A stretch of 28,261 bases of DNA from a virus (taxonomy: Duplodnaviria > Caudoviricetes): the IMG/VR virus record IMGVR_UViG_3300032290_000281, positions 1-28,261 of that record. One strand, given 5' to 3'. Positions within the stretch are counted from its first letter, which is position 1; each line of letters begins with the position of its first letter. The notes beneath the pieces are model-generated. The model was not told where the DNA came from, searched no databases, and worked only from the letters and a program-made list of their open reading frames with translations. Position numbers and translations under genes: made by a program. Positions 335 through 28,261 of the stretch are shown here, piece by piece.

Positions 335-763
335 CTATATTTTGTTAATTCGTTGGTATTTTGTCTTTAATAAACTTTCAATACGTCGTGCTGAAATGAT
401 TAAAGAAGTATTGTAGTCGTTAGCGTGCGCGTTCGTTATTTCTATACAGTCTATAACTTCCTGCAGCTTTTCACGTAGTAAAGGGTGGTAACCTTCCAGT
501 GCTAATTTAATCATACTAACCGCATAAATAACGGTGGCATGGTCTTTTTCAAACATTTTGCCTGCATCTACCAACGTGTTACCTGAAAGTACGGCCCATG
601 TCATACCTAGCTGTCGCCACTGCATACGGTCTCTAGATCTATTTGCTATTTTCAGTTCTTCGTGTGAATACGGACAAACTAGAAAAAATTCGTGCATAGT
701 GTAAAATTGTCGTAGTGGTAACTTCTTTTTAATTATTGCTACCGTTGTGCTGTCTTTAACCAT
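335..763 (-). CDS. DnaA C-terminal (domain IV)-like HTH protein
   Basis: RSRDRMQWRQLGM...TLVDAGKMFEKDHATVIYAV matches the DnaA domain IV pattern (R..RQ.AMYL...IG..FG.RDHTTV.HA). Confidence 0.7.
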   Translation of the reverse strand: MVKDSTTVAIIKKKLPLRQFYTMHEFFLVCPYSHEELKIANRSRDRMQWRQLGMTWAVLSGNTLVDAGKMFEKDHATVIYAVSMIKLALEGYHPLLREKLQEVIDCIEITNAHANDYNTSLIISARRIESLLKTKYQRINKI

Positions 764-2000: not shown

Positions 2001-2117
2001 TTAAAGTGAATAAAAATAAAATACAATTCCTAAGATTAAAAGGCCGAAAAACATACCAATTAAAGAGTTAGTCTCTTCGGCGTTGCGTGGTGTGAAATAG
2101 TTAAGTAAATTTTTCAT
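2001..2117 (-). CDS. Small single-pass membrane protein (38 aa), first gene of early operon 1
   Basis: Manual translation MKNLLNYFTPRNAEETNSLIGMFFGLLILGIVFYFYSL; A-rich leader and a TAnnTTTG promoter directly upstream. Confidence 0.65.
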   Translation of the reverse strand: MKNLLNYFTPRNAEETNSLIGMFFGLLILGIVFYFYSL

Positions 2118-2150
2118 GTCGTTTTGTTTTTTTCGTTGTTGATTACCTTA

Positions 2151-2307: not shown

Positions 2308-2335
2308 AAAAAAGGCAGCCTTTCGACCGCCTTTT
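2308..2335 (-). terminator. Intrinsic terminator (end of lysis/late transcript and of the candidate sRNA)
   Basis: AAAAGGCGGTC-GAAA-GGCTGCCTTTTTT: GC stem, GNRA loop, U tract. Confidence 0.85.
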
Positions 2336-2368
2336 CTGTACCTAAAATGAAAAAAACAAAACTTGTGT
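2308..2368 (-). ncRNA. Candidate ~60-nt antisense regulatory RNA
   Basis: Lies between TATATTTG (2372-2379) and the terminator. Its 5' part GUUUUGUUUUUUUCAU is complementary to the start regions of the genes at 2117 and 25505. Confidence 0.5.
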
Positions 2369-2371
2369 CCG

Positions 2372-2379
2372 CAAATATA
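2372..2379 (-). promoter_or_regulatory. TAnnTTTG -7 element upstream of the candidate sRNA
   Basis: GTATATTTGC; the same GTATATTTG core occurs at 22814 and 25529. No clear -33 element. Confidence 0.55.
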
Positions 2380-3153
2380 CTAAATTCCGTTAATCATTTT
2401 GTATTCTATCCAGTTCATGTAAACTTTATTGTTTACTGAATAAGCAGAACGACAACCGTCCTTACAAAGTAACGAGTGCATAATGGTACCTGCAGCTGTC
2501 GTATAGGTTTTACTTAGTCTTACGTTTGGCGTGCCGCAGTTAGGACATTCCCAACGTTCGCCACCGCGCAAAGTCGAATAGTTAACCTTATGTTTAGAAT
2601 AAGGCCGCAGTTTTTCGAATACCTTTTCTAAAATAACGACGTCGTTTTTACAATAGTCCACCATGCGTGTAAGAGCTTCCTGATCTTTGTCAAAAAGTAT
2701 AGACTTCCAGGTTTCAAAGCCGCCCGTTTCTGTCTTCGCACCAACGCCTAAGTATTTACTAATATAGTCTAACTTATTAGAGTTAAAATAGAACCCACTT
2801 TTAGCGTATTTAAGCGTGTCAATGGTGCGGTAGGTAGGAAACATTTCGACGTCGTGGTAAATACAGCGTGTACGTAACCATTTAATGTCGAAGCGGTCCC
2901 CGTTGTGGCCTATTATTTCGTCCGCTTTATTTACTTCTTTAATAAACTTTTCTAGTAGCTTTTTGTCGTCCTGCTTTTTGTCCCAGGTTAAAGCATGTAC
3001 TTCGTCTTCGCCTTCCCACTTCCAACACACGCAAATTATAGCGCGTTCTTTTACTATATTGTCGTGTGAAATGTTTAGGTTATATCCTATCCTCCAACTA
3101 GTAACTATGTTAGGTGAAGTTTCAATGTCGAAAAATAGTCTTTTACGTGTCAT
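2380..3153 (-). CDS. DEDD / RNase H-like 3'-5' exonuclease with C-terminal zinc ribbon
   Basis: ExoI FFDIETSP, ExoII IIGHNGDRFD, ExoIII YCKNDV; C-terminal CPNC...CKDGC. Confidence 0.85.
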   Translation of the reverse strand: MTRKRLFFDIETSPNIVTSWRIGYNLNISHDNIVKERAIICVCWKWEGEDEVHALTWDKKQDDKKLLEKFIKEVNKADEIIGHNGDRFDIKWLRTRCIYHDVEMFPTYRTIDTLKYAKSGFYFNSNKLDYISKYLGVGAKTETGGFETWKSILFDKDQEALTRMVDYCKNDVVILEKVFEKLRPYSKHKVNYSTLRGGERWECPNCGTPNVRLSKTYTTAAGTIMHSLLCKDGCRSAYSVNNKVYMNWIEYKMINGI

Positions 3154-8883: not shown

Positions 8884-10169
8884 TATACTAGTGTTTGAGT
8901 GTCAGGTAATGGCGGCAAAGACGCAAGTTCACGTATTTCGTTTGCAGTCATATTTTCCAAAACTTTTGTAGCTAGATTAGGGTTCATCGCGTTAAGTGCG
9001 TTAATTACGTCACGTCCTTTTTCGTCCACCGCTGTAATAGTTTCGTTTACTATCTGGTAGTTAGTAATTTCGACATGCGCGTTAATACCTACAGCTTTAA
9101 GAAGGCCGTTAAACACGTCTGTAATGGTTTCACGTAGTGGTATAATAGTATTCTTTTCGAAAATAACGTAGGCTTGTTTAATATCTGAACCAGAACCTAA
9201 CGCACCCGAAGTTCTAACCCCCAAAAGGATAGGGTCTATAGTGTGAGCGAAACAAATTTGTTCTGTATTAAGTTCACTAACACCCTTAAACAATTCGTCG
9301 TTAGAGTTTGTAGGTACATTTACAAGTTCTGGTAAACTTTCGCTGTTATTTGCGAAGAAGGCTACCGCTTTTCCTGCGTTTTCCGCGCCTTTTAGCTTGT
9401 TAACGGTGTCTTTAATTAACTGCATCTCTTCTGTGCTTTGTGGTTTCTTAGGAAACATCATAGCGAACGAAGGAAAAATTGAGTTTTGTATGTTAGACTT
9501 TTGTAAATAGGACAATTCACCACTTAAAAAAGCGAAGTTTAACGCGCTCGTATATTGCGGTAGTGGATAGTAGTCCTGTCCTACGCTCTTTTGTTCGTAT
9601 ACGTACAGGTACGTTCCGTCTTTACATTCTGGGTGGTATGGTTCGTAGGTCGTTATTTGAAGGCCAAAACGCCAGTCTTCGTTTACCGCGTATAAAGTTT
9701 TAGTTTGGTTTATACGTACCTTTTCAGGTGCCACCCTTTTAACGTTATACGTCTTACCGTTTTTAAGTTCAATTAAAAAGTAACAACGGCCATGTAAAAT
9801 AACGTCTTTTGTGATCACTTTAAGCGTGTCTTTAAACCCTATCTTTTTACCAAAGGCGTAAAGTACTACTTTTTCCATGTCTGTTAGCTTACTTTCGTCG
9901 AAGGTATAGCCACCACCAATAGTTGCGTTTGTCTTAAAGTCTACAATAGAACCATGCAAAGGCGACATGTAGTACATTTCGTTCAAGTACTGAGGGTACA
10001 AATTGTCTTCGCCAAAACGAACGTAACCTTGCGTAGTATATCTTACGTCAATATGCGGTAGTGACAAATTGCCACCAGGTACACGCAAAAATGGCGTACT
10101 AAAACTTTGGTAACCTGTTTCTACTACTTTAAGACTGTCGTCTTTTTTAAATTTTCCCAATAAACCCAT
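8883..10169 (-). CDS. Portal protein
   Basis: FGEDNLYPQYL...SPLHGSIV, YYPLPQY, GAENAGK, I.FAH.I.P.LLG are typical of portal proteins in this phage group. Confidence 0.85.
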   Translation of the reverse strand: MGLLGKFKKDDSLKVVETGYQSFSTPFLRVPGGNLSLPHIDVRYTTQGYVRFGEDNLYPQYLNEMYYMSPLHGSIVDFKTNATIGGGYTFDESKLTDMEKVVLYAFGKKIGFKDTLKVITKDVILHGRCYFLIELKNGKTYNVKRVAPEKVRINQTKTLYAVNEDWRFGLQITTYEPYHPECKDGTYLYVYEQKSVGQDYYPLPQYTSALNFAFLSGELSYLQKSNIQNSIFPSFAMMFPKKPQSTEEMQLIKDTVNKLKGAENAGKAVAFFANNSESLPELVNVPTNSNDELFKGVSELNTEQICFAHTIDPILLGVRTSGALGSGSDIKQAYVIFEKNTIIPLRETITDVFNGLLKAVGINAHVEITNYQIVNETITAVDEKGRDVINALNAMNPNLATKVLENMTANEIRELASLPPLPDTQTLV

Positions 10170-10520: not shown

Positions 10521-10552
10521 ACTTAATAAGTACGTTTTAGAAAAGTTGGTTA
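10521..10552 (-). promoter_or_regulatory. Putative phage late promoter (TAACCAA-N13-TACTT)
   Basis: TAACCAA-CTTTTCTAAAACG-TACTTATTAAGT, ending 4 nt before ATG 10516 and just downstream of a terminator. Confidence 0.75.
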
Positions 10553-13084: not shown

Positions 13085-13116
13085 ACTTAATAAGTACACT
13101 TAAAATGTTTTGGTTA
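13085..13116 (-). promoter_or_regulatory. Putative phage late promoter (TAACCAA-N13-TACTT)
   Basis: TAACCAA-AACATTTTAAGTG-TACTTATTAAGT-CA-ATG. Confidence 0.75.
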
Positions 13117-13144
13117 ATTTTTAAACAATATTTTTATACCTTTG
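13109..13144 (+). promoter_or_regulatory. Bacteroidota-type promoter for the plus-strand cassette
   Basis: TACCTTTG at 13137-13144, 15 nt before ATG 13160; TTTG at 13109-13112 (spacing somewhat long). Confidence 0.65.
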
Positions 13145-13159
13145 GTTAAAATCTAAGCA

Positions 13160-13438
13160 ATGAAAAAAATGACAGTTACTAAAAAAATGATTAAGAGTGA
13201 CGAGAATTTAATGTGTCATTCACAAATTAACTTACTTTGTCATGGTCATTTAATTGAAACTTATGGATTGACTTTGGAAGAGTTATTTATTTGGAACATG
13301 GAAGAAAGCCCCGAATTTAAATATGCTTACTGGGAGTGCGGAAGAGTGCCACGAGTTGAAGTATTAACCAATGAAGATTGGGGGACAAATGTAAGAGCAA
13401 GAATATATTTTGAAAAACCAATAAACAAAAACAAATGA
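13160..13438 (+). CDS. Hypothetical protein (AT-rich)
   Basis: 92-aa ORF after the promoter, ATGA overlap with the next gene. Confidence 0.6.
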   Translation: MKKMTVTKKMIKSDENLMCHSQINLLCHGHLIETYGLTLEELFIWNMEESPEFKYAYWECGRVPRVEVLTNEDWGTNVRARIYFEKPINKNK

Positions 13439-13983
13439 TACAGATGTACGGGGTCGAAATTCCCAACCAATTAAACGAGTTGACTATACAACAATTCGAT
13501 GAACTCAACAAAATAGAAAATAATGCAGAACTAGATACCATTGAAAAGTGGATTGAAAAATTTATCTATCTAGGTGTACCTGAAAAGGCCTTCGACAACA
13601 TGGAGTTAGAAGAGTTTGCTAACTACATTAAATTATTTAACAAGTCCGAAGTACCAAACGCTGCAAAAGTTACTGAATTAGTCATTGACAAATATACCTA
13701 CCAGGCTAACGAAACTATAGGCGTTAAAGACTTAGGTTTATTAGAGCGAATTTACCGCAGCAAAGCGGACGACTTCTGCGCGCAAACGTTAGCTATTTTA
13801 TTTAAGCGGACGGACCTAACCCGGACTGAACACTACGCACCTGCGCATCTAAAGTTTAAGGTGAACCTTATGAAAAAACAAAGCGCGGAAATAGCCTTCC
13901 CGTACATTATGGAAATTCTACAAAAAATTACTGCAATTTCTGAAAAGAAGGTAGAAGAAATTAAAGAAGACGTAACAGAATAA
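13435..13983 (+). CDS. Hypothetical phage protein, possible tail assembly chaperone-like
   Basis: IPNQLNELTIQQF...LAILFKR; similar to the following ORF. Function is inferred only. Confidence 0.6.
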   Translation: MIQMYGVEIPNQLNELTIQQFDELNKIENNAELDTIEKWIEKFIYLGVPEKAFDNMELEEFANYIKLFNKSEVPNAAKVTELVIDKYTYQANETIGVKDLGLLERIYRSKADDFCAQTLAILFKRTDLTRTEHYAPAHLKFKVNLMKKQSAEIAFPYIMEILQKITAISEKKVEEIKEDVTE

Positions 13984-13985
13984 AG

Positions 13986-14723
13986 GTGAATTTACCTAGA
14001 AATTGGAACGAAGTAACGGTTAGTCAGTGGCAGGAGCTTATGTCTATTGACCCCGTAGAATTTAACAGCGTATTCCTGCAAACAATAGAAGGCCTATCTA
14101 TACTTTCTGATACAGACCCCGAAGAAATAGAAGACCTTACACCCGAAGAGTTAGTAGATCTAGCTTCTAAAGTTAGCTTTACTAAGCGTGAGCCGTCTAA
14201 TAAACCTAAAGACATGGTTAAAGGTTTAAGATTAAAACCGTTAGACGCGCTTACGCTAGGGGAGTTTATAGATTTAGAATATTATACTTTACAAATAGTA
14301 CAAAATTTCGATATAATACTTAGTATATTATACAAACGTTGGAAAACGGACGAGTGGGGTAACGTTATTTTTGAGCCGTATTTATACCCCCTAGTGAGCC
14401 GCAAAGAAATATTTAGCGACGTGTCTATAAACGAAGTCTTTAGAGCTGTATACAACTACATTGAATACGCTAACGACTTTAAACAGCGCTACGAAAATCT
14501 ATTTAACCCGGTAATAGAAGAAGAAGAGCCTGTAGAGTTAGACGAAGAAGACCTTAAAGCCGAAGCCGAAGAAAAGGTATTTAGTAAATGGTCGTGGGAA
14601 AAATTACTTTACGATCTATCTAACCAGGACCTAACTAAAATAGACGCCATTACAGACCTTAATTTAGTCTTCGTCTTTAACATGCTTTCAATGGTTGAAG
14701 AGCTACAGCTAAACAAAGATTAG
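13986..14723 (+). CDS. Hypothetical phage protein, possible tail assembly chaperone-like
   Basis: LPRNWNEVTVSQW...LTLGEFIDLE...ILSILYKR...YENLF...KWSW...L...D; GTG start. Confidence 0.65.
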   Translation: MNLPRNWNEVTVSQWQELMSIDPVEFNSVFLQTIEGLSILSDTDPEEIEDLTPEELVDLASKVSFTKREPSNKPKDMVKGLRLKPLDALTLGEFIDLEYYTLQIVQNFDIILSILYKRWKTDEWGNVIFEPYLYPLVSRKEIFSDVSINEVFRAVYNYIEYANDFKQRYENLFNPVIEEEEPVELDEEDLKAEAEEKVFSKWSWEKLLYDLSNQDLTKIDAITDLNLVFVFNMLSMVEELQLNKD

Positions 14724-22374: not shown

Positions 22375-22558
22375 ACCATTCTAAAAAGTCCTTAGCGTAT
22401 ATCCTACGCTGCACTGACGAACACATGCAATAGTTAACGGTTCTGTCGGCGTACTTGTTATAGACGTCTCTAACGCGGACAATAGTAACCTTATTAACCT
22501 TACCTGCGTTAAATTCGTCTTTTAGCTGCTCAAATAGGCTTATTTCCTGCGGCTCCAT
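22355..22558 (-). CDS. Hypothetical phage protein
   Basis: 67 aa with a CxC motif. Confidence 0.65.
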   Translation of the reverse strand: MEPQEISLFEQLKDEFNAGKVNKVTIVRVRDVYNKYADRTVNYCMCSSVQRRIYAKDFLEWYEGYNR

Positions 22559-22797
22559 ACTTCATGTACCATTTGAAGTCCAAAAACAATAAACGAAGAC
22601 ACTACCGCCTTTTCAAAAGACCAGGTAATAGCCAACGCGGACCAGAACGTGCAGCACTGCCAACACTCTAAAGACCCGAAAATGTATTCTACAATAGGCC
22701 GCGGCTTCATTTTGGTGTATAACCAGTCAGCTATAAACTTAAACGGTTCAAACTCTTGAATAAACCACCCTAACGCAATTAAAAAAAGATACTCCAT
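22540..22797 (-). CDS. Small membrane protein with CxxC..FW motif
   Basis: LECWQCCTFWSAL flanked by hydrophobic segments; first gene after the 22814 promoter. Confidence 0.65.
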   Translation of the reverse strand: MEYLFLIALGWFIQEFEPFKFIADWLYTKMKPRPIVEYIFGSLECWQCCTFWSALAITWSFEKAVVSSFIVFGLQMVHEVWSRRK

Positions 22798-22813: not shown

Positions 22814-22840
22814 CAAATATACGATTATTTTTTAACCAAA
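22814..22840 (-). promoter_or_regulatory. Bacteroidota-type promoter for the sigma/terminase operon
   Basis: TTTGGTTAAAAAATAATCG-TATATTTG, 16 nt before ATG 22797. Confidence 0.7.
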
Positions 22841-22863: not shown

Positions 22864-23325
22864 TTAAAATTTAGTTAATAGTTCTCTACTTAAAAAATAT
22901 CCTTTACCATGTCCTAAGTCTTTAATATTTTCTTCTTTGATTAAGTCACATTTATAGGCCCACCCAATAAATTCAACTAGATCTTCATCTACATAGGCTA
23001 AAATATACACGTCTATATCATTATTTACCTTTAAGGTGCTTAATAAATTGCCGTTTTTATGCTTTGTAGACTTTATGTCATACCTAAAACCTTTTGGCGT
23101 TACACCGTCGTAGCTACCACTTCGTGGACTTAAACCAAAGTCAGGAAAAACGTTAATGTATTTAGCAAACGCAAATTCGGCTTTAAAACCCTGTATGTCT
23201 GCATCTACTCCGTCTTGCGTTCCAATTTTGGCGTCAAATACATTATTTGAACGTGCTATATTAGACCTTTGTTTACCTATATATTCACATAGATCTAATT
23301 CGTGTTTATCTAATTTTATTTTCAT
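22864..23325 (-). CDS. Hypothetical protein, possible PD-(D/E)XK nuclease fold
   Basis: G..AE.AFA...YD......YDIKST pattern; AT-rich. Confidence 0.5.
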   Translation of the reverse strand: MKIKLDKHELDLCEYIGKQRSNIARSNNVFDAKIGTQDGVDADIQGFKAEFAFAKYINVFPDFGLSPRSGSYDGVTPKGFRYDIKSTKHKNGNLLSTLKVNNDIDVYILAYVDEDLVEFIGWAYKCDLIKEENIKDLGHGKGYFLSRELLTKF

Positions 23326-23349
23326 AGTAAGTAAATTAAAAACCCCAAC

Positions 23350-23472
23350 TTATTCGTCAGGGTTTAAACGCTCAAAAGGCGGTAGTTGAAAGATATAACG
23401 ACAAATGTCTATTTTAGTTCGTCTTTTCGTCCTATAGTTGCGGTGGTTTTTATCTATCTTCCTTCGCTTCAT
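23350..23472 (-). CDS. Small basic protein (40 aa)
   Basis: Manual translation MKRRKIDKNHRNYRTKRRTKIDICRYIFQLPPFERLNPDE; fills an operon gap. Confidence 0.5.
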   Translation of the reverse strand: MKRRKIDKNHRNYRTKRRTKIDICRYIFQLPPFERLNPDE

Positions 23473-24957: not shown

Positions 24958-25505
24958 AATAACAATAAGGCTTTAGTTTGTAGATCTGTTAATTGGTAAC
25001 CTGACAACGCCTTTTTAAACGCTTCTGGTGTCATTTCTTTATTAGCTATTTTAGTTAGTCCATTTTCAAAACGTTCCTGCGTTATAGTTGGTTTCGTGTT
25101 TTTAACCGTTGCGCTAATTTCGTTACCGTCGTCGTCAATGGCCTGTAGTGACATAAGAGACTGCAAAGACGCGCGGCGGTAGTATGTCGTAGCTCCTATA
25201 AGTTTTTGCGGGTCCAGGACTTCCGGAAGTTTAAGCGTTGACTTAACACATTCGCCGTTTTCAATGTCTATAATCATTGTTTCAACGCAACCGTCTACAA
25301 TAGGCTGTAATAGAAGTAAACCATGTTCTAATAAAATAGGTTCTACCGTTTCTAATAACGCGTTAATGTCAGCGTATGACTTCTTAAAATGGGGGTTGTT
25401 AGCGTTCTTAACTACCTTACCAATTTTCTGCTTTGCAGCGTGTAGCTTTGGGTAAAGACCCGCTACTTTTACCACTTCTTCAATGGTTTGTTCTGTTTTT
25501 TTCAT
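24954..25505 (-). CDS. ERF-family single-strand annealing protein
   Basis: K.A.NPHFK.SYAD, PIL..HGL...Q, PQ..G...TY.RR.SL, DDDGN. Confidence 0.85.
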   Translation of the reverse strand: MKKTEQTIEEVVKVAGLYPKLHAAKQKIGKVVKNANNPHFKKSYADINALLETVEPILLEHGLLLLQPIVDGCVETMIIDIENGECVKSTLKLPEVLDPQKLIGATTYYRRASLQSLMSLQAIDDDGNEISATVKNTKPTITQERFENGLTKIANKEMTPEAFKKALSGYQLTDLQTKALLLL

Positions 25506-25528
25506 CGTGTTTTGTTTTTATGTTTAGG

Positions 25529-25556
25529 CAAATATACGCTTTATTTTTAATACACA
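25529..25556 (-). promoter_or_regulatory. Bacteroidota-type promoter, early operon 2
   Basis: TGTGTATTAAAAATAAAGC-G-TATATTTG; shares 19 nt with the promoter at 2151-2180. Confidence 0.8.
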
Positions 25557-27018: not shown

Positions 27019-27900
27019 TTAAAATGGTAAGTCGTTCTTTGTAGATCTATTTCGTTTAATTGGGTCCACGCCATTAAATAAAAAACCTAGGCCGTAGTTA
27101 TAGTAAAATTGTAAAGGCCTGTTAGACATGGTTTGCGCCCCTCCGGTATCTTTGTCTTTAATTTTGTCAATGTCAATAAGCGTAAAAAATTGCATGCTTT
27201 CTAATTTTGTAAGGCGGTGAACGTTTACCCAGTCGTCGCACATGTTCGCGAAAAGTTTACCACCTTCGGCCATTGACTTGTTAGGTACCATAGGCTGACC
27301 TTCCCATTCATGGCCTATAGGGTATTCCATGCTTTTACGTCCTGTAGCTGTTACAGGGTGCATAGACAAATAGGCCGTCTTTTTGTTCAATTTACACCAA
27401 CGTTTCAAATAACGAATAAATTTTATATTGCTTTCGTAGTTCATGTCATGATCTAGTTGGTTAAAAGGGTCTATAAAATAGCCGTCTGCAGGTATTTGTT
27501 CAAACTCTTTAAGCAAATTTTCGGGTGTATATTGTAGCTTATTGTCTACGAAGAAAAAATAATCTTCCAGGTAGTCGCAAAATTCGTCTATTTCTGCATG
27601 CGTTAACTTTTTATAGGGTATACCTGCATACATTTGTATTAAGTCGCGTAGTACCTGGCCTTTAGAATTTTCATCTGTCCATACTCCCCACTTCAAACCA
27701 TGGTTAGTAGTTAGTGCTAACATGTACCAGGTCATAAAATACGTTTTACCGACGTTGTCACCGCCTAAAATTCCTACGTACTGACCGTATTTAAACCTTA
27801 GTGAATTGTCAAACTCGCAATTTATACCTAGACCCTGCGCAATTTTACCGTCTTTATAGTCATGTAGGTAGTCTTTTGCGCTTCCTTTACTTAATACCAT
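27019..27900 (-). CDS. DnaB-like (SF4) replicative helicase
   Basis: Walker A GGDNVGKT, conserved EN, Walker B FIDP, H3 SMHP, K.K near the C-terminus; follows the initiator. Confidence 0.8.
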   Translation of the reverse strand: MVLSKGSAKDYLHDYKDGKIAQGLGINCEFDNSLRFKYGQYVGILGGDNVGKTYFMTWYMLALTTNHGLKWGVWTDENSKGQVLRDLIQMYAGIPYKKLTHAEIDEFCDYLEDYFFFVDNKLQYTPENLLKEFEQIPADGYFIDPFNQLDHDMNYESNIKFIRYLKRWCKLNKKTAYLSMHPVTATGRKSMEYPIGHEWEGQPMVPNKSMAEGGKLFANMCDDWVNVHRLTKLESMQFFTLIDIDKIKDKDTGGAQTMSNRPLQFYYNYGLGFLFNGVDPIKRNRSTKNDLPF

Positions 27901-28261
27901 ACATTTTAAATTGTCGTTCCATTTCTAAAACTAAAGGGTCCGTAGCTTGTTTCGTTTCTTTAGGTAGGTATGGTAACGTGTTATTTAACGTAGTCTTCCA
28001 ATTTTTAATTTTACGGGTTTTACCGTTGACATTTACGCTCCATTCGTTACTGCTCCATGAGTGGTATTTAAGTCTTAACGCGTCGTTAGAAACTTCCGGT
28101 AGTTGTGCTAAACCATACGCCACAAACTCGTCTAGAGTTGGTATATTAGTATTGTTATTGTTATTGTTATTGTTATTAGCTTCGGTTTCGCTTACTTCTT
28201 GCTTCGGTTTTGCTTCGGTTTCGCTTACGTTTTGCTTCTGTTTAGGTTTACTTCCGTTTAA
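27887..28261 (-). CDS. Phage replication initiator, C-terminal part (track ORF 27887..28123 is only the 3' end)
   Basis: PTLDEFVAY...YHSWSSNEW...KIKNWKTTLNN resembles the C-terminal domain of phage replisome organisers and is in frame with 1..330. Confidence 0.8.
   Translation of the reverse strand, partial: LNGSKPKQKQNVSETEAKPKQEVSETEANNNNNNNNNTNIPTLDEFVAYGLAQLPEVSNDALRLKYHSWSSNEWSVNVNGKTRKIKNWKTTLNNTLPYLPKETKQATDPLVLEMERQFKMYGIK
28139..28261. repeat. Terminal direct repeat, second copy
   Basis: Identical to 1..123. Confidence 0.95.

Follow-up and report, generated by a model that had tools for sequence, protein, structure and literature searches.

How do small phages that lack a recognisable repressor, sigma factor, or RNA polymerase shut off their early genes? 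This open question is raised by positions 2308 to 2379 of the window, i.e., the whole stretch of DNA analysed, which is 28,261 nucleotides long. The first-pass annotation of the window placed here a short antisense RNA directed against the first genes of early operons, and proposed for it an early-gene shut-off or an immunity switch. The unit described below is a precise candidate answer to the question.

The source contig is complete, with 28,261 bases and a 123-base terminal repeat. This repeat at the contig ends indicates a circular phage genome. The genome codes for a terminase, portal, tape measure, endolysin, helicase, NinG, ERF, and a YqaJ-type exonuclease. No integrase or repressor is named by PHROGs among 48 proteins or by Pfam among 27 window proteins, and neither collection names a partition gene in the window. 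The nearest cultured relatives are all Bacteroidota phages, and a Bacteroidota host is therefore likely. They include the Nonlabens phage P12024, related by its capsid (24%) and ERF (45%) proteins, and the Flavobacterium vB_FspS phages, related by the exonuclease (53%).

Anatomy of the predicted small-RNA unit

The unit and its upstream gene are made up of the following elements:

2372..2379, minus strand: -7 promoter box, TAnnTTTG, Bacteroidota type, read from the sequence; the columns T-A-n-n-T-T-n-G are invariant across 16 aligned units of relatives
2308..2368, minus strand: predicted small RNA of ~60 nt, with a putative 5' end at ~2366-2368
2347..2362, minus strand: seed core, single-stranded and antisense to the ERF start, the 2117 leader, and the 13160 start in duplex and folding computations
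2340..2345, minus strand: UUAGGU segment, kept in seed groups A, B, D, E, and J
2308..2337, minus strand: intrinsic terminator, hairpin and U-tract, by fold prediction
2380..3153, minus strand: RNase H-like exonuclease gene, upstream of the unit; a metallo-phosphoesterase gene takes its place in loci L063 and L118, where the unit is kept

The -7 box reads TATATTTG (2379-2372, minus strand) and is located directly 3' of the exonuclease stop codon. The consensus used for promoter boxes, a TAnnTTTG -7 element with a TTG -33 element, is presumed to be the Bacteroidota type. No TTG -33 element is found upstream of the unit's -7 box; most first early promoters have the TTG.

In folding computations, the 5' 31 nt of the predicted RNA are unpaired and are followed by one hairpin and a U-tract. 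The terminator hairpin (2337-2308) has an energy of -17.9 kcal/mol and a z-score of -4.1, and none of 200 shuffles is equally stable. This terminator likely also ends the transcript of the upstream endolysin and exonuclease genes. Across 49 loci, the mean unpaired probability of the seed is 0.72, with a lowest value of 0.43. The unit possesses a promoter box and an intrinsic terminator of its own, without a conserved ORF, as is expected of a trans-encoded small RNA. Rfam covariance models give no match in the window at E<=5, and in nine related loci they identify only tRNA at gathering scores.

Two other readings of the seed region were dropped. Pairing of UUAGGU with the 3' end of 16S rRNA amounts to only 4 bp in a by-eye check. 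An antisense mini-ORF starting from a CAT in the seed varies in frame between relatives and is absent in group D.

An inverted repeat, GTCAC-N17-GTGAC, lies between the unit's terminator and the early promoter (2272-2298). The same pattern is observed in 43 fetched loci, some of which are duplicates, and in group B it is adjoined by short direct CCCCCCAAGT repeats. It is possibly an operator or an origin.

Putative targets in the window

Four host-type promoters are relevant to the predicted RNA, and the leaders of three contain a match:

2115..2134, minus strand: target 1, the leader (2121-2134) and ATG (2117) of the first gene of early operon 1, a 38-aa ORF (2001-2117); promoter box 2151-2158
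25490..25519, minus strand: target 2, the strongest, at the start of the ERF-like annealing protein gene, first in the recombination operon; promoter box 25529-25536
13159..13169, plus strand: target 3, a candidate and the weakest, at the start of the first gene of a plus-strand three-gene insert; promoter box 13137-13144
22814..22821, minus strand: fourth host-type promoter box; the leader of its gene (22540-22797) is unmatched and is an internal negative control

When the matches were re-read from the sequence, every coordinate of the first-pass annotation proved correct. The seed matches target 1 at 14 of 14 positions, as an exact inverted repeat of 2349-2362 and 2121-2134 that ends 3 nt before the ATG at 2117. 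At the ERF start, 16 pairs including one G:U are formed at 25490-25505, plus 11 of 11 at 25509-25519. These two sites share seed bases and are thus alternative registers rather than additive ones. The third match is 11 of 11 at 13159-13169.

Genome-wide duplexfold scans were swamped by long pairings rich in G:U and loops, and a small-loop duplex model was used instead, with stacking and loop energies that are approximate Turner 2004 values. Duplex energies are -17.2 kcal/mol for ERF, -13.2 for 2117, and -12.9 for 13160, and the median of 48 starts is -6.25. The three leaders hold ranks 1, 2, and 3 among these 48 start regions, and the early leaders are thus not simply equivalent to other A-rich starts, a doubt that the first-pass annotation had raised about its own proposal.

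Dinucleotide shuffles of matched composition are as good as the real seed in 0/600 cases for ERF, 0/600 for 2117, and 6/600 for 13160. The best score over all starts is equalled by 2 of 80 shuffles. The 22797 leader has no match by this measure, with 239 of 600 shuffles as good. Thus, the claim of three targets stands for ERF and the 2117 leader, and 13160 is kept as the weakest candidate; in ViennaRNA duplexfold with a wider window it ranks only 5th of 49. Targeting of the early class as a whole is not supported. Early starts are not better matched than late starts as a class (27 early vs. 18 late, p=0.12), and the seed instead matches promoter-led first genes.

The unit in related phages

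A total of 54 relatives were found via the exonuclease, and 52 are readable past its stop codon. The exonuclease is followed by the box, a U-rich tract, and a terminator in 42 of the 52 loci (among them L001, which ends after the seed); the unit is absent there in 10. Flavobacterium phage mumin9-1 shares the exonuclease but has no anti-leader unit after it, and L149 has enough sequence upstream and no unit. The box was also scored in 43 loci without requiring a promoter, 41 of which have a recognised seed. It is present at the stop codon in all 41, vs. 2 of 41 control terminators. The stem sequence of the terminator varies among relatives, and the hairpin and U-tract are kept.

The gene upstream of the unit can be the exonuclease, the metallo-phosphoesterase noted above, a DnaA-type HTH gene (L095, L119), or an unknown ORF. 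Members of groups A-E, J, and K carry the unit after the lysis region. In groups F-I, it is found after the first early operon and before a large primase-like gene. Because the unit occurs under differing upstream genes and at two genome positions, it is a movable cassette and not just the end of a late transcript. Feedback from late to early transcription, which in the first-pass annotation would be allowed by the position of the seed at the end of the lysis transcript, is not a general logic, since four groups (F-I) carry the unit inside the early region.

The cultured phages P12024L and P12024S have a box-seed-terminator unit after the lysis genes; the unit of P12024 is located at 9826 of JQ823123. 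Promoter-led starts of P12024L rank 3, 4, 6, and 9 of 60, and four further promoter-led starts rank 22-59. Between 33 and 40 of 400 shuffles equal the first three promoter-led starts. The identity of this unit with the anti-leader system is suggestive only.

Several other elements were observed among the relatives. The window encodes a gene with a DnaA C-terminal-type HTH (335-763, minus strand); in L095 and L119, relatives of this gene immediately precede the unit, and it is a candidate regulator. More promoter-seed-terminator units with an anti-start appearance are located at L032:12495 and L051:9722, in distant phages on contigs of 34 and 63 kb. In a second type of promoter-terminator unit, the 5' segment and the terminator loop are complementary and change in concert from locus to locus. 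This type is found at L075:2224, L090:5126, L069:1058, L147:2690, L162:2726, L047:13405, and L055:11667 (mumin9-1). It directly precedes a gene, which is an annotated endonuclease in mumin9-1 and in the other loci possibly a gene for replication or a nuclease. The unit may therefore act as an attenuator or form a pseudoknot, and the five loci scanned have no Rfam match.

Co-variation of seed and leaders

The sequence of the seed is not conserved; it follows each phage's own leaders. For comparison, 49 loci were sorted by eye into 11 seed groups, and the U-rich unit was chosen where a locus held two. In the resulting 11-group grid, the L125 leader was replaced by its ERF start and the L058 seed was re-cut by hand. 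The own recombination-operon (ERF) leader is the best partner in 10 of 11 rows and 9 of 11 columns, and 0 of 200,000 label permutations are as good. For the first early leader, compared in nine groups, the own leader is best in 7 of 9 rows and 5 of 9 columns (p=1.5e-5; the seed groups are related, and all p-values given here overstate independence). Between groups G and H, the seed differs at two positions, and the first leader differs at the two matching ones.

Two further searches led to 92 non-redundant loci. A uniform rule gave a unit in 44, and three more were added; most of the loci in which a unit was missed had too little upstream sequence. L243 was left out of this later set and of the shuffle test as its ERF start is mis-called. 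The 46 loci with a unit form six groups, with an exact p of 1/720, and of 1/120 within lineage F; groups K and F1 overlap the first set and only F2-F5 are new.

Of the 76 distinct seed-leader pairs in the two sets, 68 score better than at least 95 of 100 shuffles. Energies of <=-10 kcal/mol are reached by 28 of 38 units vs. 0 of 41 other terminators, each represented by the 32 bases before it, including 0 of 11 U-rich ones. Several seeds contain only 31-46% U yet still track their leaders. Seed and early leaders therefore co-vary among relatives, in the grid as in its repeat. Shared ancestry alone does not keep two separate changing loci complementary.

Exceptions are observed. Group J (L107, L116, L118) shares the anatomy of the unit and retains the UUAGGU segment, but its seed matches neither the ERF nor the first early leader, and 41-61 of 100 shuffles are as good against the ERF leader. 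The combination of a single-stranded 5' seed and co-varying start regions, observed overall, fails in group J. Four of five F2 pairs, which are marginal, and L013 fail the shuffle cut. For the F2 and F4 leaders, the F3 seed is a better partner than the seed of their own group. The first early leaders of group B reach only ranks 10-29. Wobble counts (G opposite a seed U in 29 of 77 mismatches, U opposite a seed G in 27 of 94) are drawn from rows that are not independent and are confounded by transitions. Outside the phages, a chromosomal gene start of Formosa mirrors the group-B seed over 17 nt.

Taken as a predicted RNA, the discrete trans-acting antisense RNA against the first genes of early operons is strongly supported, being conserved and co-varying, with negative controls. 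The comparative support is strong that the feature is real and that it represents a putative trans-acting antisense control in a new form.

Proposed mechanism

The reading considered quite probable is that the conserved promoter-seed-terminator unit gives rise to an antisense RNA of ~60 nt that would block translation of the early first genes, probably as a delayed brake. Host RNA polymerase would read the unit's -7 box, and read-through from the upstream operon would add RNA with the same 3' end. As the -33 element is absent from the unit's promoter, the RNA may come from read-through only. The terminator would stabilise the RNA, and the unpaired 5' half, with its computed complementarity, would anneal to the early operons around the starts of their first genes.

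Messages of the Bacteroidota are described as lacking a Shine-Dalgarno sequence, with initiation tuned by upstream adenines and low structure (PMC6847099). Pairing from about -20 to +13 would cover this A-rich initiation region of Bacteroidota ribosomes. For both ERF and the first early gene, the RNA would hide the leader adenines and the AUG and would stop 30S loading. GibS is reported to repress by pairing at such start regions (PMC7366714), and FopS-10 to block translation beside the start codon of first-in-operon genes, as compensatory mutants prove (PMC11697453). The lost translation of a first gene may in turn be polar on the rest of its operon.

The same host polymerase would drive both the early messages and the inhibitor, and a delayed lytic brake is therefore favoured. 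The RNA would lag behind the messages and cap the early burst, in what would be an incoherent feed-forward loop. The predicted RNA would thus probably have the role of a lytic timer. As a side effect, a later-arriving phage of the same group would be silenced.

Alternative explanations

The main rival is that the same antisense RNA could have immunity or exclusion as its main job, by keeping the early operons off in a carrier or extrachromosomal state or by silencing superinfecting kin, and the seed groups would then be heteroimmunity groups comparable to those of c4, which is described as underlying P1/P7 heteroimmunity (PMC12197685). The seeds are indeed largely group-specific, and PHROGs and Pfam name no protein repressor for the job. 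However, the seeds cross-react within lineage F, no integrase or partition gene is named in the window, and P12024, the closest cultured relative, is described as lytic. Two narrow scans of GTDB genomes, one with capsid-protein patterns and one with a group-B DNA pattern, revealed no prophage copy. With no integrase or CI named in the window and no prophage in these scans, nothing points to a lysogenic state in need of protection, and the immunity switch of the first-pass annotation is unlikely. A different objection concerns the origin of the RNA. The seed could function solely as the 3' end of the message from upstream (the late lysis transcript or the end of early operon 1), intact or processed, with a -7 box that is weak or unused and no separate RNA. 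The unit always ends a same-strand gene and misses the TTG -33 of early promoters, as this would predict, but the TAnnTTnG box is invariant under differing upstream genes and rare before other terminators. Such an origin is considered improbable, and it would change only where the RNA comes from, keeping the antisense mechanism.

The remaining explanations dispense with the RNA. The match could operate at the DNA level, as an operator for a phage protein, as an invertible promoter segment (2121-2362), or through gene conversion between inverted copies. The exact 14-bp inverted repeat flanks a segment of ~215 bp that contains the early promoter, an inverton-like arrangement, and the wobble counts did not separate RNA pairing from DNA similarity. 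The inverton was nevertheless rejected, as 57 forward and 0 flipped arrangements were observed (including contigs fetched twice) and PHROGs names no recombinase. The best match is ~5 kb away, over an AUG and coding bases; the orientation is constant, antisense for the unit copy and sense for the leader copies; and groups F-I carry the unit on the downstream side of the early promoter. A DNA-level cause is very improbable on these grounds. Finally, the locus could be a plain terminator, whose U-rich spacer matches A-rich Bacteroidota starts by composition. The seed is of low complexity, as the first-pass annotation had cautioned, the Formosa gene start mirrors a seed by its 17 nt, and group J and P12024 have no significant match. 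Composition-preserving shuffles, seeds of foreign groups, and other terminators fail to match, though, and seeds of 31-46% U track their leaders. These comparisons answer the caveat and largely refute an effect of composition, which can hardly be credited.

Other features of the genome

An ORF of ~195 aa resembling a replication initiator (minus strand) crosses the contig ends, from 329 through the terminal repeat to ~27887. It contains a poly-Asn run coded by TTATTG repeats, and the 78-aa ORF listed at 27887-28123 is its tail. The three-gene plus-strand insert (13160-14723) is moron-like, possesses its own host-type promoter, and is located inside the structural region; it has no PHROGs or Pfam match.

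The motif GTACTTATTAAGT is common to 13086-13098 and 10522-10534 (minus strand), just before two structural genes (13082, 10516), and is a possible late promoter or leader signal. A non-coding stretch (minus strand) at about 23330-23410 (also given as about 22870-22930) precedes a strong terminator, upstream of the region neighbouring the gene at 22864-23325. Similar stretches are observed at L023:17008 and L057:9226.

Significance

An RNA of the kind proposed would bear on more than this genome. Tentatively, and as a possibility that is open to doubt, a small aquatic Bacteroidota phage family may have replaced the protein repressor with a re-programmable RNA (promoter, ~30-base anti-leader, terminator), by which every early operon would be silenced at its first gene. 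The seed and leaders would be rewritten together, and the resulting RNA-defined immunity groups would set lytic timing and exclude close kin.

Natural compensatory variants are already at hand, in the form of ~15 seed types. The variants also map the leader bases that are important for Shine-Dalgarno-free initiation, and the unit offers a 70-bp design for antisense knock-down in Bacteroidota. Host messages could be targets as well, cf. the Formosa gene start. Cultured P12024, with a similar unit after its lysis genes, is a possible first model, though its matches are weak. In a literature search at the level of listings and abstracts, no description of a self-targeting small RNA in Bacteroidota phages was found.

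Comparison with known systems

P22 sar and lambda oop are phage-encoded small RNAs, each of which adjusts a single developmental gene through base pairing. Both are cis-encoded and fully complementary to one target, whereas the RNA predicted here would be trans-encoded, with partial matches to several targets.

P4 CI RNA and N15 CA RNA are short RNAs that control the phage early operon by antisense pairing and replace a protein repressor. They are processed from the leader of the operon that they control and act by premature termination. In contrast, the promoter box and terminator of the unit are located outside its targets, and start codons are covered.

The c4 RNA of P1/P7 is similar in that a phage small RNA pairs in trans with the phage's own message near the ribosome binding site, and its sequence varies among related phages (PMC12197685). 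As described there, c4 is structured, carries its complementary bases in loops, targets the message of the antirepressor ant, and serves lysogenic immunity. The seed of the unit is instead one linear unpaired tract before a terminator. Its putative targets are the first genes of several early operons (ERF, the 38-aa ORF), not an antirepressor or kil operon. Neither PHROGs (48 proteins) nor Pfam (27) names an antirepressor, CI, or integrase, and the unit has no match to Rfam covariance models, which sets it apart from c4 and P4 CI RNAs.

The FopS and GibS RNAs of Bacteroides thetaiotaomicron come from the same phylum and share a long single-stranded 5' seed and pairing at Shine-Dalgarno-free starts (PMC11697453, PMC7366714). 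FopS is described as targeting the first genes of several operons and as having canonical host promoters (PMC11697453). These RNAs are chromosomal, longer (GibS is ~145 nt), and multicopy, and they regulate glycan metabolism (PMC11697453, PMC7366714). The unit, with FopS compared by description, is ~55-70 nt, single-copy, phage-encoded, and predicted to be self-targeting, with a seed that is rewritten between lineages. As read here, it works like c4 and FopS, yet is a member of neither.
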